This document shows positions 1 through 64,000 of a stretch of 64,000 nt of DNA, piece after piece. The stretch spans positions 1-64,000 of IMG/VR virus record IMGVR_UViG_3300023097_000002; one strand, written 5' to 3'. Every line of letters starts with the position of its first letter. The stretch's first letter is position 1. A program made the translations under genes and the position numbers. The DNA comes from an uncultured virus (IMG/VR IMGVR_UViG_3300023097_000002). Its lineage: Duplodnaviria; Heunggongvirae; Uroviricota; Caudoviricetes. The notes beneath the pieces were generated by a model. It was not told where the DNA came from. It saw only the letters and a program-made list of their open reading frames with translations, and made no database searches.

Positions 1-402
1 CTGGGCCATGAGGCACGAAAGCTGCTGGACGCCCTGCTGAAGCACGTGAACGAGGCGGGGCGGGCCCAGGTGGCAACGACCACCCTCCTCAAGGACAGCG
101 GACTGACGCAGGGCGCCCTGGTGCGAGCCAGGGCCGAACTCACCCGGAGCGGACTGCTGCGCACCGAACCGGGCTTCTCTGCCACCGGCCTGCGGGGGGC
201 GAACGTCTACGTACTGAACCTGACCGCAATCGACCCCCCTTCCGAGCAGGTTCTGGAAGACGAAACCGGACGAATTGAGGCAGACGATCCCGACGCCGCT
301 GGTCACCAGGTTTCCGAGGAGATTCCGACTCCTTCCGGACGGCATCGCAGCGAACGGAAGGGCTTCCTTTACGGCCTCTTCCGGAGGTCCCGCTCTTCCT
401 GA
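1..402 (+). CDS. Winged-helix DNA-binding protein, 5' end outside the window
   Basis: Frame open from base 1; HTH-like LLKDSGLTQGALVRARAELTRSGLL followed by a wing ending ANVYVL. Confidence 0.6.
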   Translation: MGHEARKLLDALLKHVNEAGRAQVATTTLLKDSGLTQGALVRARAELTRSGLLRTEPGFSATGLRGANVYVLNLTAIDPPSEQVLEDETGRIEADDPDAAGHQVSEEIPTPSGRHRSERKGFLYGLFRRSRSS

Positions 403-570
403 AGCGTGGAAGAGGTTCCGTCCCGTCGGAAGAAGCCGAAGAAAGGGTGGTTGTTCTCCACTCGAATCGGACGAATGAGGGCACGACGGGGCGGCACTTC
501 GTATCATGATTCTCGAATCATGGTGAATTCGGACAGAACGGACCACTTCCCGAATCTGGCCCTGGTTCGC

Positions 571-600
571 TTGACACGGCCTAGGCCACGCTGGCACAGT
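571..600 (+). promoter_or_regulatory. Sigma70-type promoter with palindromic operator GGCCTAGGCC (578-587) in the spacer
   Basis: TTGACA-18 nt-CACAGT upstream of the gene at 666. Confidence 0.6.
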
Positions 601-665
601 CATGCCTAACGCCCCCAAGCGAGGTTTCCAAAACCGGGGGTTTTCGGAAAGGGAGAAACCCAGAC

Positions 666-1826
666 ATGGATAAGACGGAAAACAACGAGAAGGTCGCGAA
701 GGTCGACATCGACGAGGACGGTCCGAAGCGTTTCTCCGTTCTGGTTCTGATGGCGAGCATCCTCTCGATCGGCTCCCTCGCCTGGAGCACCTGGTCCTTC
801 ATCGACCTGTACAAGGTCGACGCGCTCACCATCGACAAGCTGGGCGGGCTCAGCCTGATCTCCCTCTCGGCCGCCGCGACGATGGACGTCGTCTGGAGCG
901 CGACGATGGTGGCCCAGTACCAGGGTCAGAAGCTGATGGGCAAGCTGCCCAAGGGGAAGAAGCCCTTCGACTTCCTGCCGGTCATCGGCTGGGTCGAGGC
1001 CCTGTTCGTCGCCGGTCTGCTCGGCTACCACGGAACGACGATCGGCGGCGGCGCGGCGGGGTTCGCGGCGGTCCTCCCGGTCTTCACGAAGCTCACGTGG
1101 ACGATGGCCCTGAACGGCCTGAAGGACCCGAGCGACCTGACCGACGACGAGAAGGCGCAGATGGCCGCGAAGAAGCGGAAGTCCCGCCTCACCCGGGCCG
1201 ACGCCGAGGCGACCGCCGAGCAGCACGAGGCCGACATGATCCTGAAGAACCGCGAGCACGAGGCGGCCCTGGCCGAGCAGCGGCGCCTGGCGGCCATCGA
1301 GCACGAGAAGGTCCAGGCCGAGATCGAGCGCAAGAAGCTGGAACAGCAGGCCCAGTTTGAACTGGAGAAGGCCAAGCTGGAGGGCGAGGCCGAGACCAAG
1401 CTGATGCGTCAGCAGCTCAACGCGCGACTCCAGATCGAGACCCTGCGCAGCCAGCAGGGCATCAGCCTGGAGCGGATGGACGCCGAGCAGGAACTGCGTC
1501 TGCGGGCTCCGCTGGACCTCGGCTTCAACGTCATCCAGGGGCAGGTCTCCCGGCCGCAGCTCACCAAGGGCGGCGTTTCCTTCGAGGAGGAGGACGACGC
1601 GGAGGGCATCAGCCTGGACGGCCTGAACCTGACCGACGCCGAGCGCCGGAAGGTGAACCTGGCGGCCCGCTACTACGCCGCCGACGCGGCCGAGGGCGGC
1701 ATCACCAAGGCCGCCTTCGCGAAGGCCAACCAGACGGGCGCCCCCCGGGTGACCGAGGCGACCACCGCCTTCCCGCTGGAGTGGTTCGTCGAGAACGGTC
1801 TCGCGAGCTGGATGAACCAGGGCTGA
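666..1826 (+). CDS. spdB: SpdB-like plasmid spread membrane protein with coiled coil
   Basis: About four N-terminal hydrophobic segments (AWSTWS..D..W..IGW..YHG..P..K..W..DP) then a long coiled coil, the architecture of Streptomyces SpdB proteins; RBS AAGGGAG. Confidence 0.6.
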   Translation: MDKTENNEKVAKVDIDEDGPKRFSVLVLMASILSIGSLAWSTWSFIDLYKVDALTIDKLGGLSLISLSAAATMDVVWSATMVAQYQGQKLMGKLPKGKKPFDFLPVIGWVEALFVAGLLGYHGTTIGGGAAGFAAVLPVFTKLTWTMALNGLKDPSDLTDDEKAQMAAKKRKSRLTRADAEATAEQHEADMILKNREHEAALAEQRRLAAIEHEKVQAEIERKKLEQQAQFELEKAKLEGEAETKLMRQQLNARLQIETLRSQQGISLERMDAEQELRLRAPLDLGFNVIQGQVSRPQLTKGGVSFEEEDDAEGISLDGLNLTDAERRKVNLAARYYAADAAEGGITKAAFAKANQTGAPRVTEATTAFPLEWFVENGLASWMNQG

Positions 1827-1843
1827 CAAGCCCGCACGGCAGA

Positions 1844-1869
1844 GAAGCCCCCGCTCCGGCGGGGGCTTC
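1844..1869 (+). terminator. Intrinsic terminator
   Basis: GAAGCCCCCGC-TCCG-GCGGGGGCTTC followed by CTGTTTT. Confidence 0.75.
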
Positions 1870-1925
1870 CTGTTTTCCCCAACTTGCCTGTATTCTGGCT
1901 GTGTTGACTAGGAGAGGAGAATGAC

Positions 1926-2240
1926 ATGGCGTGGCGAATCGAGGCATCCGGAGGAACCGGATCCGCCAATTACGTTGTGATCCAGCCGATGATGGACGAC
2001 GACCCGGAGAGTGAAATCCGGCATGCGCTGATCACCATCTCGCCGAAGGGCGGTCGCGAGCACCCGACGATTCCGATGCTTCCGACGGGTGCCCTCTACC
2101 GCGACCGGCTCGGCATGGCGTACCGCATCCAGGAGGCCACCATCGTCGAGACCGGAACCGACGACGGCGAACATTCCATGTGGCGTTACGAGTACCTGGT
2201 CGCCTACAGCGCGACCCTGCCGCTCCGGCCCGTCTCATGA
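1926..2240 (+). CDS. Hypothetical protein
   Basis: RBS GGAGAGGAG; stop overlaps the next start. Confidence 0.6.
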   Translation: MAWRIEASGGTGSANYVVIQPMMDDDPESEIRHALITISPKGGREHPTIPMLPTGALYRDRLGMAYRIQEATIVETGTDDGEHSMWRYEYLVAYSATLPLRPVS

Positions 2241-2446
2241 TGGAGAAGGTCGTCACCTGGGCCATCGCCAAGGCGGTCGAGGATGTCGACGACAGTGTGA
2301 CTACGGCTGCCCTGCTGGGGGCCGCACTGGACACCGCCACGTTCTCCGCGATCGGCGTTCCGGCAACCGGTGCCGTAATCGCAGGAGCCGCCACGGGCGT
2401 GGGCCTGAACGTGGCTCGGAAGATGATGAAGGGGGAGAAGGAGTGA
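2237..2446 (+). CDS. Small Gly/Ala-rich membrane protein
   Basis: ATGA overlap upstream and GTGA overlap downstream; hydrophobic glycine-zipper-like segment. Confidence 0.55.
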   Translation: MMEKVVTWAIAKAVEDVDDSVTTAALLGAALDTATFSAIGVPATGAVIAGAATGVGLNVARKMMKGEKE

Positions 2447-3880: not shown

Positions 3881-4615
3881 TCACAGGGGCACGTGGAACG
3901 AGACCGGCCGGTTGCCCTCGCAGACCTTCACCGCGACCTCGACGACCTTGCCATTGGCCAGCAGGACCCGGCGTGCCGTCTGCGTGACGATCGCGTACGC
4001 GCCCTTGAGTTCCAGAAGCTCCCGCTCCCGGTCGGTCGCCAGTCGCGACGTGATGACGGGGATCAGATCCTTCTGCCGGGATCCCATGCGCTCGGCGGCC
4101 AGCTCGCGCGAACCGCGCGGCGTGGCCTCCGCCATCGCCAGCTCGGGGGTCACGGCCGTCACCTCGGGCGGGTAGTACGAGTGCCCGGTGGCGACCGGCT
4201 TGCCGTCGATCCGGTTCAGGCGCTCCCGGTAGACGACGCCCTCACCCGGTTCGACCCCCAGCGCGGTGGCGATCTCGGCAGGGCATGGAACCGTCTCGAC
4301 CCGAAGGATCTCCGAGGTCTCCCGGGCGCCGAGCGCCCGGCCGCTTGCCGCGTAGTTCCCGACCCGGTCCTGAACCGTGGCCGTGCGGCCCGAGATGTCC
4401 GCCACGACGGGCGGCCGGTTGCCGCTGGACGGCTCCAGGACCCCTTCAGCCGTCAGCAGTTCCACGACCTTGTCGATGGTGACGCGCGACGTCTTGTGGG
4501 TCTTGGCGAGCCTGCGGCGCGACTCCAGCGGAGTACCCGGCGCCAGCTCACCAGAGGTGATCCTGGATCGGTAATGTGCCGCAATGGCACGGTACTTGGG
4601 AATCTGCTCGCTCAC
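3881..4615 (-). CDS. GntR/HutC-family regulator with UTRA domain (TraR/KorA-like)
   Basis: PKYRAIAAHYRSRITSGELAPGTPLES wHTH plus UTRA-like C-terminus; GTG start after GAGGAG. Confidence 0.85.
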   Translation of the reverse strand: MSEQIPKYRAIAAHYRSRITSGELAPGTPLESRRRLAKTHKTSRVTIDKVVELLTAEGVLEPSSGNRPPVVADISGRTATVQDRVGNYAASGRALGARETSEILRVETVPCPAEIATALGVEPGEGVVYRERLNRIDGKPVATGHSYYPPEVTAVTPELAMAEATPRGSRELAAERMGSRQKDLIPVITSRLATDRERELLELKGAYAIVTQTARRVLLANGKVVEVAVKVCEGNRPVSFHVPL

Positions 4616-4638
4616 TTTTTCTCCTCGCGTTCGCTTGT

Positions 4639-4648
4639 GGCCTAGGCC
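4639..4648. promoter_or_regulatory. Palindromic operator GGCCTAGGCC
   Basis: Perfect palindrome about 24 nt upstream of the GntR start, in a divergent intergenic region. Confidence 0.6.
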
Positions 4649-4882
4649 GTATTGTGTCATGCTGGACTCCACAACGCCAGCAGAGACCGAAGAGAGGGTG
4701 GCATGGAAGGTAACGGGGAGGTTCAGGAGCCGGTTGCGTCGCATGATCGGCCCGTGCCGGAAGCGACTCTCGGGCAGCTTTCTGACTTCGCTGCCAACCA
4801 GGATATCGCCCGATTGGAGGCAACCGTAGAGGCCAACATCGGACTCGCTTCCGATGGAAAGCCGTAACACGGAAGGAGAGAC

Positions 4883-5845
4883 GTGGCGACGAAGGCAGCC
4901 ATTCCGCCGAAGCCGAAGACGGCCCCCACCGTGCACCTCAAGGGCCGGAAGCGGAAGCCGCCACGGACCCTGAAGGGCGACCTCAAGGCATTGAAGGGGA
5001 AGCTCGGCTCGGCCACCACTCGGTGGACTGAGAGTCAGGGCAAGGCGGAAGAGAAGAAGGAAAAGGTACGCCAGGAGGCCGAAAAGATCCTGGCCCCTGT
5101 CAAGGAAAAGGCCGCAGAGGAGAAGAAGCTCGCGGCCGAAGTGATGAAGCCGGTTCAGGCGGCTGCCGCCGCCATCAAGAACGGGCTGGACCCGGCCAAC
5201 GGAAAGACCCGGCCGTACGTCACTTCGTTCATGATCTCCTCGGTGATGTCGTGGGCTGTCGGACCGCAGATTCTGACCGCTCTGTACGAGCGAATCCGCT
5301 TCGGCACCTCGACCACCGGATGGGGGATTCTGAACGGCCCTGGCAGGTGGTTCAGGGACACGATCGGCATGGCGTACGAGTCGGACCGGCTCGGCAGCCT
5401 GATCTGGGCGGCGGTCATGGGGCTTGCCCCCATGTTCCTCATGTTCACCCGGAACCAGGTCGCCGGATACCTGGCCCAGAGCACGTACCGGGGGCGGATG
5501 GTCGCCTTCAGCATCACGTGGCTGACGCGCTCGGCGTGGCTGGTCCCGATCCTGTTCTTCATCGGGGTCTCGTACCCCGATGAGGTCACGGCGATCTTCG
5601 GTTCGCCGTGGACCTTCCAGATGTGGCAGTTCTGGGTCGCCGGTCTGTTCTGCATGGCGTTCTACGCGACCATGTGGACCTTCGACCGGATCGAACGACT
5701 CACCCGCGAACGGGCGGCCATGTCGGAGGAGGAGCTGGAGAAGTCCCAGAGCATGGGGCCTGGCATCTTCCACATCGTGCTCATGATCCCGCTGGCGTCG
5801 ATCGTCACGGGGATCCTGCTCTACGCACCGGGCGCCGCCTGGTGA
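4883..5845 (+). CDS. Multi-pass membrane protein, possibly transfer/spread associated
   Basis: Lys-rich N-terminus plus about five TM segments; RBS GAAGGAG. Confidence 0.7.
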   Translation: MATKAAIPPKPKTAPTVHLKGRKRKPPRTLKGDLKALKGKLGSATTRWTESQGKAEEKKEKVRQEAEKILAPVKEKAAEEKKLAAEVMKPVQAAAAAIKNGLDPANGKTRPYVTSFMISSVMSWAVGPQILTALYERIRFGTSTTGWGILNGPGRWFRDTIGMAYESDRLGSLIWAAVMGLAPMFLMFTRNQVAGYLAQSTYRGRMVAFSITWLTRSAWLVPILFFIGVSYPDEVTAIFGSPWTFQMWQFWVAGLFCMAFYATMWTFDRIERLTRERAAMSEEELEKSQSMGPGIFHIVLMIPLASIVTGILLYAPGAAW

Positions 5846-6079: not shown

Positions 6080-6658
6080 GTGATTCTGGCACTTACGCAG
6101 CAGCAGCAGATCGAGGTTCCGGAGAACTCGTGGATCGGTCACACCACGATGGCGGGCTTCGGAATCATCCTGCTGGTGCTCTCGTTCCTCTGCATCAAGG
6201 GGAACAAGAAGGGTCAGCAGATGTTCCTCTGGGGCGGGCTGACCAAGGCGCTGATGACCAAGGCTGTGCAGCAGCCGACCAGCCGCATGATGACGAAGGT
6301 TCACGGAGGTCCGAGCGAAGGGTTCGACTGGCGGTCCGCAATGACATTCCTCGTGGGAATGTGGGCCATGACGTCGATCGTCAGCTCGACCGGTGGATTC
6401 GTCGTCGACCTGGTCGACTGGTTCCAGGGCCTCGTCATGGCGCTGGCCGACTGGCCGGTCCTGTCCGACATCGGAGCCGGGGGCATCTGCCTCTTCCTCG
6501 GGTTCCTCGCGATGCGGAACAAGGACGACGACAAGCAGGATCTGATGTACGGCGCCATCTGCGGGTTCTTCTTCCCGCTCGGCGGTGGCACCTGGGCCGA
6601 GATCACGCTCCAGATCGGCAACTGGATCCCGCAGCTCATGCAGAGCCCGTTCCACTGA
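6080..6658 (+). CDS. Multi-pass membrane protein
   Basis: About four hydrophobic segments; RBS GAGGG; terminator downstream. Confidence 0.7.
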   Translation: MILALTQQQQIEVPENSWIGHTTMAGFGIILLVLSFLCIKGNKKGQQMFLWGGLTKALMTKAVQQPTSRMMTKVHGGPSEGFDWRSAMTFLVGMWAMTSIVSSTGGFVVDLVDWFQGLVMALADWPVLSDIGAGGICLFLGFLAMRNKDDDKQDLMYGAICGFFFPLGGGTWAEITLQIGNWIPQLMQSPFH

Positions 6659-6730: not shown

Positions 6731-6760
6731 TTGTTGGCTGGCCTAGGTCAATGTTAGAGT
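6731..6760 (+). promoter_or_regulatory. Promoter with operator GGCCTAGGTC (6740-6749) in the spacer
   Basis: TTGTTG-18 nt-TAGAGT upstream of the transglycosylase gene. Confidence 0.55.
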
Positions 6761-11877: not shown

Positions 11878-12168
11878 ATGCTCAGCACAGGCGCGACCAT
11901 CAGCCGGACCGTCGAGAATCTGCTGGCCATCATGGTCAGTGAAGACCGAGATCGACTGGCTGGAAGCACGGTCCGCAAGGTGTACTCGGAGAAACTGAAG
12001 GCGCTGGCAACGCACCTCGGAGTCTCTGAAGCGTACCTGCCGAGGAAGATCCAGGCAGGTACATGGGATGCGAAGGAACTCGATCAACTCGCCGAGTTCT
12101 TCGAGATGTGGCCCGGCGATTTCGTTCCGGGCCCAGAAGATGAGAAAACGGAAACGGAGAAGGCGTGA
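11878..12168 (+). CDS. XRE/Cro-like HTH regulator
   Basis: KALATHLGVSEAYLPRKIQAGTWDAKELDQLAEFF; RBS GAGGAGG; TAGAAT upstream. Confidence 0.65.
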   Translation: MLSTGATISRTVENLLAIMVSEDRDRLAGSTVRKVYSEKLKALATHLGVSEAYLPRKIQAGTWDAKELDQLAEFFEMWPGDFVPGPEDEKTETEKA

Positions 12169-14621: not shown

Positions 14622-14833
14622 TGGGCCAGCCGACACCCCGCATCGCCTGTCACCTCTGGCAGCCGTTCAACCATGTCGGCCACGCCTACCGGCGCGGCGA
14701 CCAGACCGTTCACTGTCCCGGGCGAAACTGGCCCGGGATGCCCTGGGTGAGCCCGAAGCCCAGCCGGGCCGCCCGCCGGGTGGCCGTCACGACGGCCTGG
14801 GTGGAGCAGCACCCCGAGAGTTTCGTTCCGTGA
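14621..14833 (+). CDS. Hypothetical protein
   Basis: TGATG coupling; RBS GGAGGAG. Confidence 0.5.
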   Translation: MGQPTPRIACHLWQPFNHVGHAYRRGDQTVHCPGRNWPGMPWVSPKPSRAARRVAVTTAWVEQHPESFVP

Positions 14834-14841
14834 GGAGAGAG

Positions 14842-15494: not shown

Positions 15495-15508
15495 CGGAAA
15501 GAGAGAAG

Positions 15509-16479: not shown

Positions 16480-16565
16480 GATTCGCGCCGCTGGCGCGTC
16501 ATACAAGAAGGTGGCGTTCCCGGGCCCCGCTGAAGCGGGGCCCGTCCGCCCGGACTGGAGAAGAG

Positions 16566-19209: not shown

Positions 19210-19218
19210 GGTTGCGAC

Positions 19219-53694: not shown

Positions 53695-54510
53695 TCAGGC
53701 GGTGAACGGAACCGTCACGGCCTGGCTGCCGCCACGGGTGGCGTTGTCGTCGTCGGTGACCACGAGGGTGTAGTCGCCCGGCGCCGCGTAGGCGTGGGTG
53801 ACCGGCGTGCCGTCGCCCGGGTTGGCCAGGACGCCGCTGCCGTCACCCGGATCCACGGAGACCGAACCCTCGCCCTTGTTGTCGACGGTGACGGTGACCG
53901 TCATGCGCGAGGCGTCGGTGGTGTCCTCGGTGACGGTGAGCGCCAGCGGGTCGGGCTGCGGGTCCTGCTCCGGCACGGCCGGACCGGCGTTGATCTGGAC
54001 GGTCGCGGTACCGGCGGGCACCACGTCCACGGCCAGGGTCGCCTCCAGCGGCGGCTCGACATCGGTGACGCGCACGGTCAGTACGGTGCTGCCGGGGGCG
54101 CCGGAGATGACCCAGCCCTTCTGGTCGTCGCCCGCGTCGAGCTGGACGGTCGCCACGGTCTCGTCGGCCACCGACCACTCCACGGTGGCGTCGGTCGGGT
54201 AGCCCGCCGCGTCCCGGGTGTCGATCGCGACGCTGAACTTCTCGCCAGTGTTGATCTGCACGGTTTCTCCCTCTTCGGCAGTGTGCTTCGGCCAGGTCAC
54301 GTCGGAGTCTTCGCCGACCGCTGGGCCGACTCTGAGGATGAGCCGGGTTACGCCAACGAGCCAGCCGTAGAAGCGGTTCGCCCTCTCCAGCATCACCTGC
54401 GTCGCCGCGTCGGTGTACTCACCCGGCTCTGGCAGGGTGGTGGCGAAGGTGCCCGCCGCTTCCCGGAGAGCTGCGATCCTGAGATCCCGCGTCTCGTCGG
54501 GTGTTGCCAC
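53695..54510 (-). CDS. Ig-like plus PKD-domain protein, probable virion accessory protein
   Basis: VEWSVADETVATV (Ig-like); DPGDGS...HAYAAPGDYTLVVTD (PKD); downstream of the capsid gene. Confidence 0.7.
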   Translation of the reverse strand: MATPDETRDLRIAALREAAGTFATTLPEPGEYTDAATQVMLERANRFYGWLVGVTRLILRVGPAVGEDSDVTWPKHTAEEGETVQINTGEKFSVAIDTRDAAGYPTDATVEWSVADETVATVQLDAGDDQKGWVISGAPGSTVLTVRVTDVEPPLEATLAVDVVPAGTATVQINAGPAVPEQDPQPDPLALTVTEDTTDASRMTVTVTVDNKGEGSVSVDPGDGSGVLANPGDGTPVTHAYAAPGDYTLVVTDDDNATRGGSQAVTVPFTA

Positions 54511-54583
54511 GGTCACTCCTTGTCTCTCAGGAGGAGCGTACGGCATCTCGGACCAACGGCAGAAAAATGGCCCAGAAAATCCG

Positions 54584-54613
54584 GAAGCCCCCACCTTGCG
54601 GCGGGGGCTCTTC
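54584..54613 (-). terminator. Hairpin terminator
   Basis: GAAGAGCCCCCGCC-GCAA-GGTGGGGGCTTC followed by U-rich runs on the - strand. Confidence 0.6.
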
Positions 54614-54772
54614 GGAAAGGAGAAGAAACGTGGCCGTGACGGAGTCCTGGGGACTCGCACAAGGACGGTTCCTTCTTGGGCGGGGAGGGTGAGTCCTCGC
54701 CACACCCATAAGATACCCGAGGTGGGGGGCTTTACGCCAGTTCCTGCTGGCCTCGTCGTGCAATTGCACGCG

Positions 54773-54808
54773 AAGAGGGCCCCCCAGTCGCACATGGGGG
54801 GCCCTCTT
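54773..54808 (-). terminator. Terminator after the major capsid gene
   Basis: 13-bp stem AAGAGGGCCCCCC/GGGGGGCCCTCTT. Confidence 0.7.
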
Positions 54809-54885
54809 GCTGCCCGGCAGGAACGGGGACCGGGCAGGGGCGGTCGGGATCAATCCCGGGTCACCCGCCGCCCGGCTTCATCGGT

Positions 54886-56199
54886 TCAGGAACCCGAGGG
54901 ACCCGAGACCGAACCGCCGCCGATGGAGGCCATGGACAGCGCCGCCTCTTCGCCCGTACCCAGCGAGACCGCCACCGCCGAGGCGTCGATACCGGCAGCG
55001 CCGATGATCGAGCGGACCCGGTACTGGATGTCGTCGTGGGAGAACGAGCCCTCGAAGGCGTTGATCTCGCCACCGCCGAGCGCACGGCCCGTGTCGCCCA
55101 TCACGCGGACCTCGGGGGTCTCGTGACCGCGCAGGAACGCGGTGACGATGGCCGGGCCGCGCTCCGTCTGGCCACCGGCCGGAACCAGGTACCAGGTCGA
55201 AGCGGCGTTCGCCGAGGTGTCGATGAGCGGCAGCCACGGGGACTCCACGACCGTGAAGCGGCCCGCGACCGGCGAGGAGACGTTCTGGCGCATCTCCGTG
55301 CCGTCGGGAAGCTGGCGCACCCGCAGGTACGTGGTTCCCTGGGCGATCTCCTGCGCCGTGAGCGCGAGAGACGGCGGAACGAGGAGCACGAAGTTCTGCA
55401 CCCGGACCTGGCGGCCGTTGACCTGCCGCATCCCGATGTAGTTGATCGCGTGCTCCAGCGCGTCGAGCGTCAGCGGCGGGTTGCCCGGCACGTAGTTGCC
55501 CGCCGGGGCCTGACCGCCGAAGTCCTCGGTCGTGTTGAAGAAGTCCGCGTTCGGGCCCGTTGCCGTGGCCAGAACACCGGTCGTCAGCACGTCCTCGGTG
55601 TCGCGCGCCCACCGTGCCATCTCGGTGGGGAGCTGCTGGAGAACCCGCAGCTCGTCGTTCATGAACGCTTCCCACGAGAAGGGGAAACGCGCACCGTACT
55701 TGTTGACGAAGTAGTCCGTGCCCTCGGTCGTGAGGTTGAAGGTCGGGTACTCCGTCAGCTCCGGGATGCGCGGCAGGGCCCGGACGTGGCGCTCGGCGCC
55801 GCCGTTGTAGTCGGTCGTCTGCGACTGACCGGCCACGGTGTCCCAGCGGACCATGCGGGCCGGACGGAAGTCCGGAACCGTGGTGCGCACCGAGAAGGTC
55901 GGCCACTGCTGCGGAAGATCCGCATACTGGCCGAGCATGCTCGCCTGCGAGATCGACTGGAACAGCAGCGGGAAGTCGCCACTGGAGACGGCCTCGCGCA
56001 GGCGGCCCATTGCGACCGGGGAGCCGAACTCCGCCTCACGCTTGAGGCGCAGGAACTCGACGGCCTTGTTGAGCTTCAGCAGGCGGGAGTCCGCCGACTC
56101 GCGGATGGCGACCCGACGCTTGTTGTGGGCCTCGGCGATGCGCTCGAACTCGGGGTTCGTGGTCGCCTTGATTCCGTCGAGGAAGGTGATCGCGCTCAT
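54886..56199 (-). CDS. Major capsid protein
   Basis: LREAVSSGDFP, VPDFR, KYGARFPFSWEA..ND and LLVPP.L motifs; position in the head cluster. Confidence 0.9.
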   Translation of the reverse strand: MSAITFLDGIKATTNPEFERIAEAHNKRRVAIRESADSRLLKLNKAVEFLRLKREAEFGSPVAMGRLREAVSSGDFPLLFQSISQASMLGQYADLPQQWPTFSVRTTVPDFRPARMVRWDTVAGQSQTTDYNGGAERHVRALPRIPELTEYPTFNLTTEGTDYFVNKYGARFPFSWEAFMNDELRVLQQLPTEMARWARDTEDVLTTGVLATATGPNADFFNTTEDFGGQAPAGNYVPGNPPLTLDALEHAINYIGMRQVNGRQVRVQNFVLLVPPSLALTAQEIAQGTTYLRVRQLPDGTEMRQNVSSPVAGRFTVVESPWLPLIDTSANAASTWYLVPAGGQTERGPAIVTAFLRGHETPEVRVMGDTGRALGGGEINAFEGSFSHDDIQYRVRSIIGAAGIDASAVAVSLGTGEEAALSMASIGGGSVSGPSGS

Positions 56200-56216
56200 G
56201 TCTCAGATTCCTCCTC

Positions 56217-56705
56217 TCAGGAACCGGTGGCCAGCTTGTCGGCCACTGCGTTGGCGTCGCCCGGCGTGGGCTGGACGACTCGGACGATCGGAACTCCGGC
56301 CGTGGTCTGGCCGACGATGACGCCGAACCACCCGTCGGCCTCGGAGTTCGCAACCAGCGTGGCGCGCGTCGAACCGGCGGCGACGTTGATGCCGACCGGC
56401 GTACCCGAACCCATCTCCTCCGCATCCCAGCCGGTGACCGGGAAGGCGAAGGCACCGGTGAGGGCGATGGACGCCCAGCCCGGCTCCAGCGAGTTCGCGG
56501 TGTTGCGCGCGATGGAGACCGTGGTCATGCCGGTCGTGTAGGAAACCGGCTTGCCGCCGACCTCCTGCGCGAAGCCGACGATCGAACCGATCTTGACCGG
56601 GTCCCCGTTGATCGTGGGGTCGTCGTTGACCGCCGGGTCACTTCCCCGGAGCGGCAGCGGAAGGGAGATCCAGTCCGCGTACTTGAAGATCTCGTTCGTG
56701 GCCAT
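56217..56705 (-). CDS. Capsid decoration/cement protein (DUF2190-like)
   Basis: MATN...GDPVKIGSIVG.A...G.F.FPV; between scaffold and capsid genes. Confidence 0.7.
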   Translation of the reverse strand: MATNEIFKYADWISLPLPLRGSDPAVNDDPTINGDPVKIGSIVGFAQEVGGKPVSYTTGMTTVSIARNTANSLEPGWASIALTGAFAFPVTGWDAEEMGSGTPVGINVAAGSTRATLVANSEADGWFGVIVGQTTAGVPIVRVVQPTPGDANAVADKLATGS

Positions 56706-57781
56706 CAGTAGGCACCCCCGCCCAGCAGGCTTCGGATCTCGGCGAGATCGCTGTCGCCCGCAGAGGAGAAGGTCGTCGAGGACTCGGTCAGACCGAGACC
56801 CGACGGCTCGCGGCCCTCGTTGAGTGCGCCGCGCTCGGTCTCCCGGCGGAGCTGCTTCAGGTACTCGCGCTCGTGGGTGATCGACTCGTGCAGGTCCTGG
56901 TCCGGACGGTAGGACTGCGCGATGCGGATCATGGAGGGAAGCGGCAGCTTCGCCTCCAGGAGTTCGGTGAGAACGTCACCGGTCGTCTTGCTCTCCTTGA
57001 GCGCCTTGTCGGCGGTCTCGGCGCGGTCACGCAGGAACGTGATCGCTTCCTGGAGCTTGGCGTTCTCGGCTGCCTGCTTCTCGGACTGGCGGCGCGACTC
57101 CTGGATCTGCGAAGCCATGCGCGCCACGTCGACGGAAAGCTGCTCGACGCGGTCGGAGAGAGTGTCCTTGAGGGCTGCCACCTCGCTGAGGAGGGCGCCC
57201 GTTCCGATGGTGGACGGAATCGCGGTTGCGGCCTGAGTGGCGGCACTCGCGGTCTGCTCGGCCGGAGGGGACTCCGGCGTGGCCGACTCGGTCATGGTGA
57301 CGAGCCTTCCTCCCGCTCCAGCGCGGGTGACGAGGTCAACAGAGAGACCTTGCTGAATGCTGCGCACAATACGCTGCCCAGCGGTCTCCTCGATCTGGCC
57401 TGCTGCACGGATCGAGAGACCGATCACGCTGTGCAGCTCCTTGGCGATCGGCTTGGCCTTCTCCGTGAACTGGATTCGGGAGAAGAGCCCGCGCCCCTCC
57501 GGTGTCTCTTCGAAGGTTGCGTCGTCGAGAAGGTACCCGGCGATTTTCAGGACGCTGCGTTCGGGCAGGTCCATCTCTTCCGACTCGGAAGGATGGTCGA
57601 AGTAGATGTGAGTCCCGGCAGGAAAGGCGCGAGCGCCATCCCGCTTGAGTACTTCGGCGGGGTAGTACCCGCTGGAGCCCTGCACGTCGGCAGCGATGAG
57701 GAGTGCTCGCCAGATGCCCTTCTCCGGCGACTGGGCGTCCTCGGAGAGGATCGCGGTTTCCCGCAGTGTTTCCGTGGACAT
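56705..57781 (-). CDS. Capsid maturation protease/scaffold fusion
   Basis: GSSGYYPAEVL, YFDHP, IGLSI and SVDLVTRAGAGG motifs plus coiled-coil C-terminus. Confidence 0.85.
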   Translation of the reverse strand: MSTETLRETAILSEDAQSPEKGIWRALLIAADVQGSSGYYPAEVLKRDGARAFPAGTHIYFDHPSESEEMDLPERSVLKIAGYLLDDATFEETPEGRGLFSRIQFTEKAKPIAKELHSVIGLSIRAAGQIEETAGQRIVRSIQQGLSVDLVTRAGAGGRLVTMTESATPESPPAEQTASAATQAATAIPSTIGTGALLSEVAALKDTLSDRVEQLSVDVARMASQIQESRRQSEKQAAENAKLQEAITFLRDRAETADKALKESKTTGDVLTELLEAKLPLPSMIRIAQSYRPDQDLHESITHEREYLKQLRRETERGALNEGREPSGLGLTESSTTFSSAGDSDLAEIRSLLGGGAY

Positions 57782-57849
57782 GAGCCCCCTCACTGATCAT
57801 CGACGAGCACAGCGTAATAGCATCCGAGGCCAAAAGTCTCGGCAGGATG

Positions 57850-59589
57850 CTATGAAGTTGATTCGTCTCGCAGTTCGTGGTCCGCGTAGGACATCGGTTC
57901 CGGCTGCTTCGGTGCGTCAGTTGAACGCGAATTTCCTGCCTTCAGCGGGGATGGGGCACCGGGTCCACCGGTTCCTTCGGTGCCACTTCCTTCTGAATTA
58001 CCGGGGGTTTCTGAGGAATTAGGCTCCTCCGTCTTCGGAGGTTCACCCTGTCCACTTCCGCCCGCAACATAGGGAAGATCCTCGACATCGGGCGCCTCGC
58101 GGTCGAAGTCCTGCCACTTGTCACCCCATGCGTCGACCACCATGGCCCGTGCCTCATCGGCGGAGAACAGTCCGAGCCGGATCGCCATGTCGAGCGCCTG
58201 GAGCCTGCGGTGCACCGGCTCCTCGGAGATCTCCGGCCAGCGCAGGCGGACCTTCAGACCCAGCGTCTTGAAGATCTCCTTGAACATCTCGTCCATGACC
58301 TTCTGCCGGGCCTGCATCACGAGAATCGTGGAAGTGTCCAGCGAGGTGGCAGCCGCGTTGTTCGCGATCGAGGGATCCTCCAGCAGGGCCGGAAGTGGAA
58401 CGTCGAGAGCTGCGGCGATCATGGCGGCGAGCGGGCGACCGGCGTCGAAGTCCACCTTCGTGTTGCCGCCGACGGCCGACAGATCCTGCCCGGCGCCCAG
58501 AACGGCCGAGGCTCCCACGTTCAGCGGCTGGCCGGTGGAAGGGTCGGTGCGCGGGGCCTGCGCCATCGCGGCGGCCGTACGGCGTACGGACCGAGAGCGG
58601 TCCGACGTGACCTTCCAGGCGAACCGTGCGTACGCCTTGGTCAGGGTGGCGCAGTTCTCCAGGTACTCCTTGTACGCCTTCGTCCACCAGACGGCAGGCA
58701 GCACGTCGGGGATTCCCCAGCGCCAGCCGGTGAGCCGGTTGAAGGGAACATGGACGAGCACCTTCGTGTGGTCGACCTTGTCGCCTGCGATCTGCGCGGC
58801 ACCCCGGTTGCGGCCGAGCGCCCGGATGCCAGCGGGTGTCGGGTACCAGACGTCCCGGAAGGAGAACCCGGCCCGGGTGGACCCGCCCGACACGCTGTCC
58901 CGGTCGGCCTTCATCCAGGTGCGCCCGCGCGCCGCCGCCTTCGGTGACGTGATCGGGTTCAGCTCGATGTTCGCCTCGAAGTCCAGCTCCAGATCCCAGT
59001 CGTTCCAGGTGCGCCGGATGTACAGCAGGCGTTCCCGGTTGCCGCGCTGGCTGACGCCTTCCGTGATCTCCTCGAACGGCACACGCAGGACTTCCTTGGT
59101 CCGGCGGTCCACCAGGAAGAAGAGATTCCCGTCGGTGCCGGAGGTCCGCTCCAGTTCGAGCTGGGCGAGTGTCCCGGTCAGCACCTCGTTGATTCCCTCG
59201 GGAAGCTCGGGCTCCAGGTTCACCGTCCTCGGACGGCCGGGTCCCTGGATGAACTCCTTCGGTACCACAGAGACCCCGGACCCCCACACGTAACCGGTGC
59301 GCACCCTCAGCCCCCGGCCGACGAGCGGATTCACGGTCGCCACGGCCCGGCACAGCTCGCTCGCGTGATGCAGGGCGTCGAGTGTGAAGGAGTTCGCGCT
59401 GTCGGAGAGGCCCATCAGCGGGCGCCACCCGATGTCCTCGATGGCGAGCTGGGCCCGGCCGAATTCACCGGCTTCCCGCATCTCGTCAGAGACCAGACCC
59501 ATCAGCTCCTCGTTGCGCGCTTCGAGGTTGCTCACGAAGGTCGTGATTTCCGTGTGAGACATCTCTTCGAGGGGCTTGGGCATCTGCAT
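57850..59589 (-). CDS. Portal protein
   Basis: NPLVGRG..R..YVWG.G, DGNLF and WGIPD motifs; between TerL and protease. Confidence 0.85.
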   Translation of the reverse strand: MQMPKPLEEMSHTEITTFVSNLEARNEELMGLVSDEMREAGEFGRAQLAIEDIGWRPLMGLSDSANSFTLDALHHASELCRAVATVNPLVGRGLRVRTGYVWGSGVSVVPKEFIQGPGRPRTVNLEPELPEGINEVLTGTLAQLELERTSGTDGNLFFLVDRRTKEVLRVPFEEITEGVSQRGNRERLLYIRRTWNDWDLELDFEANIELNPITSPKAAARGRTWMKADRDSVSGGSTRAGFSFRDVWYPTPAGIRALGRNRGAAQIAGDKVDHTKVLVHVPFNRLTGWRWGIPDVLPAVWWTKAYKEYLENCATLTKAYARFAWKVTSDRSRSVRRTAAAMAQAPRTDPSTGQPLNVGASAVLGAGQDLSAVGGNTKVDFDAGRPLAAMIAAALDVPLPALLEDPSIANNAAATSLDTSTILVMQARQKVMDEMFKEIFKTLGLKVRLRWPEISEEPVHRRLQALDMAIRLGLFSADEARAMVVDAWGDKWQDFDREAPDVEDLPYVAGGSGQGEPPKTEEPNSSETPGNSEGSGTEGTGGPGAPSPLKAGNSRSTDAPKQPEPMSYADHELRDESTS

Positions 59590-59598
59590 GCGATCACC

Positions 59599-59847
59599 TT
59601 AACTGCTCGATTGACCTGGCGACCTGCGTCTGGCGGAGGGGTTTCCCGGGGATTGGCGAACCTTTTCCACGAGGGAGATTGCATTGTCGCAGGAGTCCGC
59701 CAGCTTCTTCAGTGCGCTCGTTCTGATCGGTGAATCAGGGGCGGTCATAAGGAGGTTCGCCAGTTCGGCATACTTTCGGCCGACCGGTCCGGCGTGCTGA
59801 GATCTGGTGAGGATCCTCCGGCGAGCCGCTTCGGCGTGGTCGTACAT
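59599..59847 (-). CDS. Hypothetical protein
   Basis: TGATG coupling; YAELA.L....P.S..R..AL.KL. Confidence 0.5.
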   Translation of the reverse strand: MYDHAEAARRRILTRSQHAGPVGRKYAELANLLMTAPDSPIRTSALKKLADSCDNAISLVEKVRQSPGNPSARRRSPGQSSS

Positions 59848-60266
59848 CACACGGATCCGTTGCCGGGTACCGGATCCTCCGGTGCGATCCGCATGAAGAA
59901 CGGCAGCACGTAGAAGTGCCCGGGGTAGGAGACCTGCATGATCTGGCGGTTGTAGAGATCGATGAACTGCTGCTGCTGGGCTCCGGACAGATGCTGGTAG
60001 TAGAACTTCGCCTGAATCTGCGCGGAGCCGTCGGACTCCGAGCGCGGCGGGTGCAGGTACGCCTTGTAGTTCTTGTCGGTCGGTCCGACCGACCATCCCT
60101 CGGCGACCAGCTTCAGGAACTTGCCCGGGTGCAGTGATCCGCAGAACGAGCAGTACGGCACCGCCTCTCCGGCGCGGCGCGGCTCCTCGCGCCACTCGTC
60201 CTGGCCCTCTGATCTGTCCCAGGGACCCATCTCCCGCATCCGGCGCGGGCAGGTCTGGATGTCCAC
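59847..60266 (-). CDS. Hypothetical protein with CxxC motif
   Basis: CPRR...CSFCGSLHP...TDKNYKAY; RBS AAGGAGG. Confidence 0.65.
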   Translation of the reverse strand: MDIQTCPRRMREMGPWDRSEGQDEWREEPRRAGEAVPYCSFCGSLHPGKFLKLVAEGWSVGPTDKNYKAYLHPPRSESDGSAQIQAKFYYQHLSGAQQQQFIDLYNRQIMQVSYPGHFYVLPFFMRIAPEDPVPGNGSV

Positions 60267-60329
60267 TTGTCCTCCTTGAGTTCCATGCACATGGTGCTCC
60301 TGGAACTACAGCTCACTTTGAGGATTCCG

Positions 60330-62699
60330 TCAGTAGGGTGAGATCATTTCCTCCTCCCAGTAGTCGTTGTCCTCGATGAGGGAGCTGGCCATCGTCTCGG
60401 CCGTCTCGGTCAGAACATCACCCTGGCGAAGACCCTCGGCCACCGGGGCGACCGCGTACGCGATGGCGTCGGCGTAGTCGGGGGACTTGCCGTACTCCTT
60501 GCGCATCTCCTCCTTGGAGGCGATGAGCAGGCGGCCGTTCTTGATCGAGTAGAAGACCATCTTCAGGTCGTCGGCGATCAGCTCGTCAGGGTCGATGAAC
60601 TTCGCCGAGCCGTTGCGCATCTTCTGGCGAAGCTGCTCGAACCAGTAGGCACGGGCGTTGTAGAAGCCGTAGACCGAACCACCGACATCCGCCGGAGGGG
60701 CCGCCGATCCGTGCATCTCGTAGACGGTGAACCACGGATCCGGCAGCAGCGTCGCACGGGCGTTCAGGGTGTCGACGACACCGGCACCGAGACCAACGGC
60801 GTCGACCCGGATCTCCACCCAGGGCGCCTTGCGCTCCTCCTTCAGGCGTTCGGCGATCTGGAGTACCTTGTGGGCCGAGGACACCGTGTCGGTCCCTGAC
60901 CAGGATTCCTCGATCTGCGCGGTCACGCCGGAGTACGAAGCGACCACCGTCTTGTCAGCACCGAAGCGCGCGACGTCGACACCCAGGCGCAGCACCGAGT
61001 ACAGCGAAGGCTTCGGAGTCTCGTCGATCGCGTCGGCCACCAGCGACGGGGCGAACAGCGACGACATGCTCTGCTCGGGGAATTTGGCCAGCACCTTCGC
61101 GATGTAGCGCGGGTCCTTCTCGCCCCAGTCGTCGAGGCGTTCCTGCACCCAGTCACGTGAGACGAGGACTTCGTTCAGGAGCTTGGGCACCGGCTCGCCC
61201 GTGAAGTTCGGAGTGCTCGACGCGGGGATCGAGATCCGATTCCACAGGTGCGCGGTCTTCGACTCCATGAAGTTCTTGCCGAAGTCCGTGTTCCGGTCGT
61301 CGGGGTTCCCGATGGCCAGGATGCGGCAGCCGACGTTCGTGGTGATGGCCTCGACGCCGGTCCAGATCTCCTCGGGAATGCCGCACGCCTCATCCAGGAG
61401 GGCCAGTACGTACCGGCGGTGAATACCGTGGAAGGAGTGGCGGTCGCCCTTGGCGGGCTTTCGGCCGAAGCCGACGATCTGCCCGTCGCCCAGCTTCCAC
61501 TCATCCGCCTGCGTCACGCGGCCCGGCATCGGATACTCGCCACGCAAGGCGTTCGAGTGGTGCTTGCGGATCTCCTCCCAGAGGATCTTGTTGACCTGCG
61601 CGTAGGTCGGTGCGGTCGAGACGACGATCGCCTGGCCCGGGGGCTTCGTCGAGACCCACCAGCAGGCCAGCACCGAAGCGATCATCGAGTTGTGGGTGGG
61701 AATCCCGCGCTCGCCGCAGAGGTACAGGTGGTCGGGCGAGTCGACCTGGATGCACTGCACGTCCCGCTCACCCACCGGCTTCACGGAGGTGATGCGCCAG
61801 CCGTCATCACCCCAGGACCCTTGCGTCAGCAGCAGATGCGACAGGGCGATGGCCCGCTGGTTGGCATCCGGAAGAAGGGTCGGAGCGTGAGATCCCATCA
61901 GGGCCAGGTGCCGCATCGTGATGCCGTACTGCCGCTCGCGCCGGTAGATCGTCTGAACGCCCGCCTCGCGCATCCGGTCCCTGACCGAGAAGATCTCCTC
62001 CGGCTCACCCTGGCGCGTCTTCCAGAGCAGCGCGGTGCGCCCGTGGGGATCGAGTCCGCCGCGCTCGGCCAGCAGTGCCTGCATCGCTTCGTCGGCCGTC
62101 CACGCGAGTCCGCGCGGAATGATCTCCGGTGCCCGCCCGGGAACGACGACCGTGCCGGGCCGCAGCTTGGCGATCTGCTTGGTGGTCAGGGTCTTCGCCT
62201 TGTGCATCCACAACCCGGTCTCCACCGGTACGCCCGCCCGGTCGGACTTGAGCTGGATGTCGGCCAGGCCCTGAAGGTCGAGCACTGGCCACAGGTGATC
62301 GGCCGAGGCGATGATCTCCTCGCAGGCGCCGCCCCTCTCCAGACGGACGACGTAACTCTCGGCCTTGTGCTCGCCCGTGACGGCCACCACCTCGACCGGC
62401 GAGCCATCGGAGCCCAGCACCTTCATGCCCTCGGTGATCTCACCCATCCTCACCGGGCCCGACGGGGTGTGAACCAGTTCGTCCAGCCCGAGCGCCTTGC
62501 CGGTGCCGTGACAGGAGGCGACGACCGTGCGCTTGTTCCGGATGAGAGAGGAGCAGATTTCCTGCTGCTTGCTCCACAGGTGGACGCCGAGAACGTCCCT
62601 GGCCCACCCCACCGGATCGTTGACCCATCCGGCCTGCCGCGCCTGATTGCGGAAGTATGCCTCCGCCTCGGCGGCGATCCGCTCTTCGTGTGAGGACAT
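60330..62699 (-). CDS. terL: Terminase large subunit containing an intein
   Basis: SCHGTGK|S Walker A, LLDEACG Walker B, GNP, LGVDVARFG.D nuclease and SPDYADA motifs. Confidence 0.92.
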   Translation of the reverse strand: MSSHEERIAAEAEAYFRNQARQAGWVNDPVGWARDVLGVHLWSKQQEICSSLIRNKRTVVASCHGTGKALGLDELVHTPSGPVRMGEITEGMKVLGSDGSPVEVVAVTGEHKAESYVVRLERGGACEEIIASADHLWPVLDLQGLADIQLKSDRAGVPVETGLWMHKAKTLTTKQIAKLRPGTVVVPGRAPEIIPRGLAWTADEAMQALLAERGGLDPHGRTALLWKTRQGEPEEIFSVRDRMREAGVQTIYRRERQYGITMRHLALMGSHAPTLLPDANQRAIALSHLLLTQGSWGDDGWRITSVKPVGERDVQCIQVDSPDHLYLCGERGIPTHNSMIASVLACWWVSTKPPGQAIVVSTAPTYAQVNKILWEEIRKHHSNALRGEYPMPGRVTQADEWKLGDGQIVGFGRKPAKGDRHSFHGIHRRYVLALLDEACGIPEEIWTGVEAITTNVGCRILAIGNPDDRNTDFGKNFMESKTAHLWNRISIPASSTPNFTGEPVPKLLNEVLVSRDWVQERLDDWGEKDPRYIAKVLAKFPEQSMSSLFAPSLVADAIDETPKPSLYSVLRLGVDVARFGADKTVVASYSGVTAQIEESWSGTDTVSSAHKVLQIAERLKEERKAPWVEIRVDAVGLGAGVVDTLNARATLLPDPWFTVYEMHGSAAPPADVGGSVYGFYNARAYWFEQLRQKMRNGSAKFIDPDELIADDLKMVFYSIKNGRLLIASKEEMRKEYGKSPDYADAIAYAVAPVAEGLRQGDVLTETAETMASSLIEDNDYWEEEMISPY
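61689..62495 (-). mobile_element. Class 3-type intein (269 aa) in the TerL P-loop
   Basis: Begins ALGLDELVHTPSG; block B ADHLW; block F VQCIQV; ends THN before Ser. Confidence 0.9.
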
Positions 62700-62871
62700 G
62701 CCGTTCCTTTCTGCTGCGACGCGTACAGCATTCCTCACCGGGGAACATTTTCGGTAACCTTGTGATGCCCCACCCGCGCAGCACTGGGCAGCGCGGACTC
62801 CACTTCCTGGGGCTGAGACTCACGGGGACCCGGCCAACTGGCCGGGTCCCCTTCCTCATGGGGAGGCAAGG

Positions 62872-63039
62872 ATGGCTTCTGAACTGGGACGTGTGGCCTA
62901 TGAGGCATACGGAGAAAGCGTCGGCTGGACCACGTTCTCGGGCACTCGGATGCCCACATGGGAAGAGCAGAATGAACGGCTGAAGCAGGCATGGAACTCG
63001 GCCGCCGCAGCCGTGGAAGCGCGAGTGCGCGAAGAGTAG
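62872..63039 (+). CDS. 55-aa phage protein, absent from the ORF track
   Basis: MASELGRVAYEAY...MPTWEE...AWNSAAAAV; RBS GGAGG. Confidence 0.6.
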   Translation: MASELGRVAYEAYGESVGWTTFSGTRMPTWEEQNERLKQAWNSAAAAVEARVREE

Positions 63040-63108
63040 CGAGTTCCCTGAACTTCCCGCCCCCAATCGGACTTTCCTTTTGCGGCACTCTGTGTCATCC
63101 TCAAAAAC

Positions 63109-63480
63109 ATGAGGAATATGTACCCGAAACCATGTGGCGTCTGCCAGGGACGGGTGCCAGCCGGAGAGGGCAACGTCCAGGGGTCGCACGCATCCGGCTG
63201 GACCGTCACGCATGACGTCTGCCCGCGCGAATCGGTCCGTCACGGCCACGCCCAGGCGTACGCGCGCCGGGTGATGGGCGTGCTGCGCCGCAAGGAGTCC
63301 ACCGCCAACGACATCTCCGAGGCCCTGGCCGGTCTCGCCGCCCTCATGCGCACGGGATGGACCAGCCGTGAGGGGTGCGAGAAGGTCATCCTCCGGGCCC
63401 CGGCGTTCAGTGATCTGGATCGCCTGGAAGTCGAGGAGATCCTGAACCGGTCCCTCTCCGAGGAAGGAACGCGCTGCTAG
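63109..63480 (+). CDS. Hypothetical protein with N-terminal zinc-finger-like motif
   Basis: MRNMYPKPCGVC...V.AGEG...H..C. Confidence 0.6.
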   Translation: MRNMYPKPCGVCQGRVPAGEGNVQGSHASGWTVTHDVCPRESVRHGHAQAYARRVMGVLRRKESTANDISEALAGLAALMRTGWTSREGCEKVILRAPAFSDLDRLEVEEILNRSLSEEGTRC

Positions 63481-63668
63481 TCACGCAGCCCAAGAGCATC
63501 GAGAAGTTCAGAGAGGGCGGCCTTCTGGTCGCCCTCTTCTGCTTCTCCGCGCAGTGCGTACGACGCCATGTTCAGCATCGCTCGACGACGGCAGGGCTGG
63601 CACTGCCCGCAGGGTACGGCACCGCAGGTTCGGGGAATGGTGATCGTGCTGACCGGGGCGATATCCAT
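63477..63668 (-). CDS. Small Cys-rich protein
   Basis: CGAVPCGQCQPC...ELLDALGL. Confidence 0.55.
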   Translation of the reverse strand: MDIAPVSTITIPRTCGAVPCGQCQPCRRRAMLNMASYALRGEAEEGDQKAALSELLDALGLRD

Positions 63669-63689
63669 GGTTTCTCTCTTTCGTGGAAC

Positions 63690-63719
63690 TTGAATTTGGC
63701 CTAGGTCATGTGGTCTGAT
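63690..63719 (+). promoter_or_regulatory. Promoter-like site with operator GGCCTAGGTC (63698-63707)
   Basis: TTGAAT-18 nt-TCTGAT in a divergent intergenic region. Confidence 0.5.
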
Positions 63720-63760
63720 GGATACAGCACGTCCCCACTTCGGAGAGGAACCCCGAACAC

Positions 63761-64000
63761 ATGAACAAGACGAGCATCGCGGCCGGTGCCGCCGCCATCG
63801 CGCTGACCGGATCCCTCGCCCTCGCGGGCACCGCCTCTGCCGACTCCTGCAAGCCCGGCCAGGTGCAGACCGCCTACGGCTGCGGCGACGTGACCGGCGA
63901 GATCAAGGGCGAGCAGGGCAAGTCCACCGGCATCACCTCCTTCGTCACCCCGGCCGTCGGCGTGGACTTCCGCGACGAGAACGGCAACAAGACGGGCTCC
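63761..64000 (+). CDS. Secreted protein, 3' end outside the window
   Basis: MNKTSIAAGAAAIALTGSLALAGTASA-D signal peptide; RBS GGAGAGG. Confidence 0.7.
   Translation, partial: MNKTSIAAGAAAIALTGSLALAGTASADSCKPGQVQTAYGCGDVTGEIKGEQGKSTGITSFVTPAVGVDFRDENGNKTGS

Follow-up and report, generated by a model that had tools for sequence, protein, structure and literature searches.

A Streptomyces plasmid-type spread module on the genome of a cluster BM siphophage

We analyzed a 64,000-nucleotide stretch of DNA from an uncultured virus (IMG/VR IMGVR_UViG_3300023097_000002), called the window below, which comprises positions 1-64000 of one virus contig of 72,269 bp that is itself a fragment of a genome. 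The window represents a new strain of cluster BM, a known group of Streptomyces siphophages, and its replicon combines a complete virion gene set with a spread module: a homologue of the SpdB protein of plasmid pIJ101, a KorA-like GntR repressor, exported wall hydrolases, membrane proteins, and, upstream of the window, a Tra motor. Homologues of SpdB, GntR, the hydrolases, and Tra on Streptomyces plasmids support the plasmid origin proposed for the module in a preliminary description of this DNA. We tentatively favor a reading, to which we give a little less than an even chance, in which this phage-plasmid-derived module moves DNA across cross-walls inside infected mycelium, or serves a carrier state.

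The plaque-purified phage Frankenweenie (OQ921725) aligns with window positions 1-19590 in one block at 89.7% identity, and colinear blocks of ~85-93% identity cover most of the 72-kb contig. Positions 1-25000 match seven phage records, all cultured members of cluster BM (Frankenweenie, Satis, JustBecause, Kela, Kradal, EhyElimayoE, and Quantum), with 100% coverage and 90.6% identity for Frankenweenie. The major capsid protein shares 99.8% identity with its Frankenweenie counterpart and 94-96% with those of the six other cluster BM records, and the contig lies within the published cluster boundary of >50% nucleotide identity or >35% gene content (PMC10652959). An IMG/VR record, G402 (188,697 bp, 99% complete), matches window 1-16143 at 98.7% identity and covers the upstream flank missing from the contig. 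Because the alignments to Frankenweenie and G402 are unbroken, the window is one element with no junction, as the preliminary description had argued. That description had named an att site or assembly junction at 10-12 kb as the sign of two adjacent elements; we looked for one and found none, and GC content is flat at 0.65-0.66 over 9-13 kb. With nothing found in its favor, a chimera or a pair of independent elements joined there is scarcely credible. Cluster BM genomes measure ~190 kb, and the proposed check for circularity came out negative, as no end repeats were detected in the 72,269-bp contig. Phages of this cluster are described as siphophages with a prolate head, isolated from plaques, whose 180-200 kb genomes have direct terminal repeats of ~1 kb (PMC6687918, PMC10652959).

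Judged by profile-profile comparison, the protein encoded at 666-1826 is a true homologue of pIJ101 SpdB: HHalign matched the two with 97.5% probability (E-value 7.6e-12, 142 columns), using a 48-sequence profile in which the window protein was aligned with 47 of 62 homologues found by profile search, short or weak rows having been dropped. The protein itself has no Pfam or NCBIfam match, and a Pfam scan of the 48 sequences returned only helix-turn-helix (HTH) matches and no SpdB/DUF2637 model. An AlphaFold2 (AF2) model, with a mean predicted local distance difference test (pLDDT) score of 83.9, comprises four N-terminal helices that would form a membrane bundle, a 120-residue helix or coiled coil, and a small C-terminal helical domain. 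A fold search with this model gave no PDB match, which does not show that relatives are absent. All 12 plasmid matches are to genes in tra regions of Streptomyces plasmids, at ~33% identity. The two SpdB-bearing plasmids that we inspected are plasmid-phages, in which spdB is flanked by a GntR gene and an FtsK-type tra, with a terminase gene adjoining. In one related IMG/VR record, the SpdB match (L090, G409 76358-77425) holds one TGA stop.

Next to the repressor gene, on the side of its divergent promoter region, the products of 4883-5845 and 6080-6658 scored below 0.9 in every comparison with the ESM Atlas. For 6080-6658, a fold search gave a best Z score of 5.9 at a root-mean-square deviation of 6.1 and no viral match at E<=0.001, a result that does not show absence of relatives; its profile did not match the one plasmid-phage membrane gene compared. 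DNA of the SLT and NlpC/P60 hydrolase genes matches 101 plasmids, 87 of them from Streptomyces; of two plasmid contexts inspected, one adjoins PrgI/mating-pair formation genes and the other does not. Since there is a separate endolysin-holin cassette, the two hydrolases are extra to it. SpdB, the KorA-like repressor, Tra, and the plasmid-type hydrolases occur together in every complete member examined of the clade that bears the operator described below. The module genes are kept under purifying selection: pairwise ratios of nonsynonymous to synonymous divergence (dN/dS) against Frankenweenie, Satis, and JustBecause are 0.04-0.49 in 20 of 21 comparisons (helicase control, 0.13-0.31), with the tra sequence taken from G402 and dS compressed by GC bias.

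The window itself contains no TraB. An FtsK-like Tra motor lies ~19 kb upstream of the window start in G402 (G402 3519-4811), and its homologue in Frankenweenie is gp156; of the flank features that the preliminary description proposed to look for, this motor was found, and no ParA or integrase was. Tra homologues are present in all seven cultured cluster BM records and in 13 records of other Streptomyces phages. Among plasmids, the motor matches 14, all of 5-16 kb and including pIJ101, with whose Tra it shares 31% identity over 356 amino acids in an alignment that begins at Tra residue 187. It has the Walker motifs and C-terminal HTH of FtsK/SpoIIIE-type TraB proteins. Just upstream of the window start, Frankenweenie gp116 (L003 26525-27973) has two transmembrane segments as well as a long acidic linker, with an HTH at its C-terminus, and is a candidate for tethering DNA or an anchor-less Tra to the membrane. 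In a smaller Streptomyces phage group, TP1604 gp69-gp71 (L010 28291-32125) include a membrane gene with three transmembrane segments, which precedes a long Tra homologue by two genes; TP1604-type phages possibly represent an independent spd-tra capture.

The repressor belongs to the GntR/HutC subfamily, and its Frankenweenie copy is 29% identical to pIJ101 KorA and 36-38% identical to two plasmid-phage repressors. A palindrome, GGCCTAGGYC, occurs at 578, 4639, 6740, and 63698 of the window; these four sites give six strand-matches against 0.31 expected, a number reached in 0 of 100 shuffles of a test whose pattern was picked after the motif had been seen. The broader pattern GRCCTAGGYC has four copies in the contig, 15 in each of Frankenweenie, Satis, JustBecause, G402, G404, and G405, 23 in each of G409 and a Streptomyces cucumeris element (below), and 30-31 in G407 and G408. 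It is missing from TP1604, two plasmid-phages, and the related records G410 and G411. As the reversed pattern occurs 0-9 times per genome, these counts alone are modest evidence, and position is the stronger: by our own gene calls, 15 of 15 Frankenweenie sites and 22 of 23 in the S. cucumeris element are intergenic, where intergenic DNA makes up 16% and 29% of the genomes, respectively. The operator is thus real and marks a genome-wide regulon, with 15-31 copies in relatives, that is not specific to the transfer module. The preliminary description had read the site at 63.7 kb as a recurrence of a transfer-module motif; the site stands, as does the argument drawn from it for a single element, and that assignment does not.

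Operators overlap the -35 box, the spacer, or the -10 flank, depending on the promoter, a variability that fits binding by a repressor better than a role as a promoter element. Variants also precede a DnaG-type primase gene and an operon leading to tra; a less clear case is a degenerate copy at ~20042, before the RecT-like gene of a RecT-primase-Pol operon. GntR probably binds the palindrome. Site-bearing genomes encode a GntR at 51-68% identity or more with a common SRxTxD recognition helix; among genomes that lack sites, G411 has a 37% identical homologue with a different helix and G410 has no GntR. Because these genomes are kin, this co-occurrence is not independent co-evolution. The GntR/HutC protein NagR reads the palindrome GTGGTCTAGACCAC via two Arg-GG contacts (PMC4333415). 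The phage site keeps the GG...CC spacing of that palindrome, and each of the two helices of the phage GntR starts with Arg. NagR and DasR, with their dre operators, are repressors of the same subfamily, from which the phage system differs by two symmetric base changes in the spacer and by a phage-encoded repressor. Host DasR was also considered as the operator binder and is disfavored, since site counts follow the phage GntR orthologue. ParA-bearing relatives (below) carry a second, divergent GntR gene (L017 8375-9127; L099; L100).

A search of 185,579 species genomes with the cluster BM capsid, which reaches close relatives only, found one locus: a 185,382-bp scaffold in the isolate assembly of S. 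cucumeris NEAU-Y11. This element is a whole BM-like genome that matches 60 of 96 contig genes and is closed by a 127-bp overlap, a closure that fits a circular plasmid and terminally repeated virion DNA alike. Within its module, directly downstream of the GntR gene, lie parA and a partner gene; the ParA Walker A motif is deviant, its 146 matches include no Streptomyces phage, and the partner matches 10 Streptomyces plasmids. Among 16 virus records, ParA is clear in four (G406-G409), with a trace in G404 (34 positions, E 8.8e-4); matches in G406-G409 and S. cucumeris fall below the curated cut-off, as they do in 14 control genomes. It was not found in the other 11, including the contig, G402, G403, and G405, six of the 11 being <40% complete, nor in Frankenweenie. 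The integrase families PF00589 and PF07508 are each found in 0 of 5 related records, and no integrase is annotated in Frankenweenie; IMG/VR labels G406 a provirus, yet its 59 kb are colinear phage DNA in which no integrase was found. Homologues occur in three more isolate assemblies: NPDC058947, whose 253-kb contig has the membrane gene and Tra; NPDC000927, at 280 kb; and 5-10, at 272 kb and with Tra only. No BM-type capsid was found among 72,556 plasmids in PLSDB, and of 401 Streptomyces genomes searched only the S. cucumeris one already known matched, which disfavors common stable carriage.

In a capsid tree of 25 rows (22 chosen from 39 loci, plus the window, Frankenweenie, and S. cucumeris), a ParA-less group of six rows (support 90/90) is nested within a clade of 17 rows (100/99) in which a ParA-positive lineage branches first. 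This nesting suggests that ParA was lost in the window lineage; parA positions differ between relatives and the outgroup G411 is ParA-less, so that repeated gain is possible. By these gene contents, a plasmid-like state is better supported for the ParA-carrying relatives than for the window lineage. Frankenweenie gp199-gp203 (L004 26096-31202) form a second replication set, with a 314-amino-acid gene of no known function, DnaB, and primase. Its DnaB shares 35% identity with a plasmid-phage DnaB. The set, which the S. cucumeris element also carries in conserved form, is a candidate plasmid-state replicon.

Compared with the korA-tra-spdA-spdB-kilB region of pIJ101, cluster BM phages share homologues of SpdB, Tra, and GntR/KorA; SpdA, KilB, and KorB of pIJ101 had no match in Frankenweenie. 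They differ in that their genes do not form one operon, their Tra lacks the N-terminal transmembrane part, hydrolases and membrane proteins are added, and the repressor appears to act genome-wide. Streptomyces plasmid-phages of the pZL12, pSAM1, and pSLE1 type (85-93 kb) likewise join virion genes to GntR, an SpdB-like protein (36% identical to that of cluster BM), and an FtsK-type Tra within a single replicon. Their FtsK/Tra is full-length, lies a few kb from spdB, and has no tblastn match in Frankenweenie; they are listed as plasmids in PLSDB, where no BM-type capsid occurs, and the BM operator is missing from the two tested. The pZL12 cycle reportedly combines conjugation with virion production, and the preliminary description had likened the window to this class. 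The likeness holds for the virion genes, the Spd protein, GntR with its candidate operator, and a motor outside the window; it fails for the Tra anchor, for ParA/ParB, which pZL12 and pSLE1 carry (PMC4487206), and for group membership, the window belonging to cluster BM and not to the 85-93 kb group. TP1604-type phages also have a Tra homologue, with a long N-terminal part (682 amino acids), and cluster BM has a larger module and regulon. According to PMC4447253, SpdB2 of pSVH1 forms pores, is required for spreading, and contacts the TraB C-terminus with its C-terminal domain; SpdB2 homologues are noted on actinophages (phiC31 and VWB are cited), with the idea that phage SpdB aids the spread of phage DNA. 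By analogy, the module may work like a Streptomyces spread system.

The cross-wall reading can be drawn as a series of steps, all of them inferred, with the pore or channel analogy resting on pSVH1. A GntR dimer on ~15 GRCCTAGGYC operators would hold down spdB, gntR itself, the wall hydrolases, and many small-gene operons. Upon derepression, SLT and NlpC/P60 would locally open peptidoglycan, and SpdB together with the two family-less membrane proteins would form a channel. The soluble Tra motor, its anchor lost, might then dock instead on this SpdB-based membrane complex and pump double-stranded phage DNA into neighboring hyphal compartments. More mycelium would be occupied per infection, or a carrier would persist temporarily, while spread between colonies would run mainly through virions. 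Virion-free spread of the window phage is plausible, and we infer that the cluster BM clade descends from, or still includes, large phage-plasmids.

Several observations weigh against this reading. The chief departure from a standard TraB system appears to lie in the motor: cluster BM Tra lacks ~185 N-terminal residues including the transmembrane segment (three BM proteins have none), and no clt was found, while plasmid Tra proteins are described as membrane-anchored and in need of a clt site (PMC3583192). At the 3' end of tra, none of 5 genomes scanned had a significant cluster of clt-like repeats, in a search that barely flagged the pIJ101 control region (p 0.07); genome-wide, strand-polarized 8-mers and 8-mer clusters, the latter uninformative, gave nothing convincing as clt. 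In addition, tra lies ~19 kb from spdB rather than adjoining it, and its comparison with JustBecause (47% identity) is the sole dN/dS outlier at 0.69. The two genes can also occur apart: G410 (88% complete) has SpdB and no Tra or GntR match, and G411 has Tra and no SpdB match. Sequence comparison was with pIJ101 SpdB only, pSVH1 SpdB2 being likened by its published description, and the published view is of a strictly lytic phage, with Frankenweenie said to have no repressor (PMC10652959). Many of these points would also fit a virulent phage that has re-used plasmid-derived genes for envelope remodeling, superinfection exclusion, or lysis help, with a soluble Tra working within one compartment and GntR only timing early genes. 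The anchor-less Tra at a separate locus, the lack of detected ParA or integrase in the window lineage, plaque isolation and terminal repeats, the uncoupling in G410 and G411, and hydrolases additional to an endolysin-holin cassette all speak for such re-use. Joint retention of SpdB, repressor, Tra, and hydrolases in the complete operator-bearing members examined is much to expect of genes with unrelated jobs, and we regard re-use as somewhat unlikely.

At the other extreme, the phage would be, like pZL12, a full conjugative plasmid-phage that persists stably outside the chromosome and spreads by mating between mycelia as well as by virions. The closed S. cucumeris element with its plasmid-type ParA partner, the module or Tra homologues in three more isolate assemblies, the second replication set and a RelE-like gene in Frankenweenie, and the genome-wide repressor system favor it; the failure to find ParA in the contig, G402, G403, and G405 beyond the weak trace in G404, the absence of Streptomyces phages among the ParA matches, the plasmid and Streptomyces genome searches, and a Tra with neither anchor nor detected clt make it improbable. 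Tra truncation and apparent ParA loss could instead mark the module as a decaying relic of a plasmid ancestor. The distant relative G411 has a full-length Tra with an N-terminal hydrophobic segment, beside its GntR. Intact frames, purifying selection, operators conserved in position, a truncated Tra start shared by nine further loci across diverse homologues, and Walker A/B columns invariant in 47 aligned Tra sequences (from 52 matches) leave decay very improbable. A bolder extension of the cross-wall reading, which we find rather unlikely, is that BM-like phages are 185-280 kb Streptomyces phage-plasmids misfiled as strictly lytic. One GntR would then be a genome-wide switch between lysis and quiescence, and soluble Tra with the SpdB complex would be a pump for virion-free movement through and between hyphae; in the ParA-less branch that includes the window, cross-wall spreading would replace partition.

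Both the phage group and the idea of SpdB acting on phages are already known. It is an open question how phages manage within a mycelium divided into compartments; SpdB-assisted phage spread has been proposed in print (PMC4447253), and we found no test of the proposal. Two cluster BM genome papers do not mention spread genes (PMC6687918, PMC10652959), and in the open literature, subscription papers being outside our coverage, we found no paper treating these phages as temperate or as carrying such genes. The idea is directly testable, since the cultured phages Satis and JustBecause, which grow on S. lividans, carry the whole set. That a closed, ParA-bearing relative occurs in an isolate assembly suggests the presence of very large plasmid-like prophages in a group described as lytic.

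Table 1. Features of the window, with the evidence for each assignment
Position	Strand	Feature	Evidence
1..402	+	5'-truncated HTH protein, homologue of Frankenweenie gp115; contig begins within gene	gene calls, alignment
577..588	.	Operator palindrome in spacer of TTGACA-type spdB promoter; position kept in 6/6 related loci	motif and promoter inspection
666..1826	+	SpdB, pIJ101 family	profile-profile match, AF2 model, plasmid homologues
1926-2240	+	Conserved gene, no assigned function	kept in relatives
2237-2446	+	Conserved gene, no assigned function	kept in relatives
2443-3102	+	Pro-rich conserved protein, single predicted transmembrane segment	transmembrane prediction, kept in relatives
3095-3820	+	Conserved gene; position held by parA and partner pair in S. 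cucumeris element	locus comparison
3881..4615	-	GntR/HutC (UTRA) repressor, KorA/TraR-like; probable operator binder	domain search, homology, operator co-distribution
4638..4649	.	Operator ~23 bp upstream of GntR start, divergent promoter region	motif inspection
4883..5845	+	Polytopic membrane protein, 320 amino acids, no known family	sequence, family and atlas searches
6080..6658	+	All-helical membrane protein, 192 amino acids, no known family, 43 homologues	sequence, model and fold searches
6739..6750	.	Operator upstream of TAGAGT -10 box of SLT-NlpC operon	motif inspection
6786-7424	+	Lytic transglycosylase (SLT), predicted exported, QES motif intact	domain search, N-terminal hydrophobic segment
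7421-8020	+	NlpC/P60 peptidase, predicted exported, DCSG and His motifs intact	domain search, N-terminal hydrophobic segment
9250..9912	+	YdjM-family membrane protein	domain search
12165..27918	+	Replication arm: UvrD helicase, exonucleases, RecT-like, primase-helicase, Pol A	domain/PHROGs search
28614..45210	-	Siphophage tail and neck operon: tape measure 34198-39417, major tail 40571-41137, two glycosyltransferases	domain/PHROGs search
53695..62738	-	Head operon: terminase, portal, protease, head fibre, major capsid	PHROGs, capsid identity
63697..63708	.	Operator in promoter of putative secreted protein (63761-64195)	motif inspection

Gene and domain calls recovered every component listed in the preliminary description, namely the SpdB-like gene, GntR/UTRA regulator, membrane proteins, secreted wall hydrolases, replisome, and head-tail arm (Table 1). 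They also bear out its statement that the window has no integrase: none of the 75 window open reading frames (ORFs) matches an integrase family in Pfam or PHROGs, and none of 18 ORFs at 63.8-72.3 kb does so in Pfam. Rfam gave 0 matches on the window. ARAGORN calls a tRNA-SeC(tca) at 5855-5927 (+), annotated likewise in Frankenweenie and not in Satis or JustBecause (where the alignment starts at ~5901); with no Rfam match, it is probably a false call or another structured leader.

Within the phage arms, the terminase gene (60330-62738, -) carries a ~270-amino-acid insertion that runs from just past Walker A to a THN-S end and starts with Ala; judged by its motifs, it is intein-like despite the Ala start. 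At ~19590, Frankenweenie has a ~1-kb insertion, annotated as an intron, in a Cas4-like exonuclease gene, and the window has none. Between the head and tail operons, 46487-53639 (+) holds ~17 small opposite-strand genes, including an RlaP-like nucleotidyltransferase gene (50050-50745). Three glycosyltransferase genes, one at 18502-19209 and two within the neck and tail operon (42128-43869), make glycosylation of virion or DNA possible. Past the window end, the contig at 67.7-71.8 kb encodes a thermolysin-like M4 peptidase and ThyX (L001 7699-8598 and 11060-11842).

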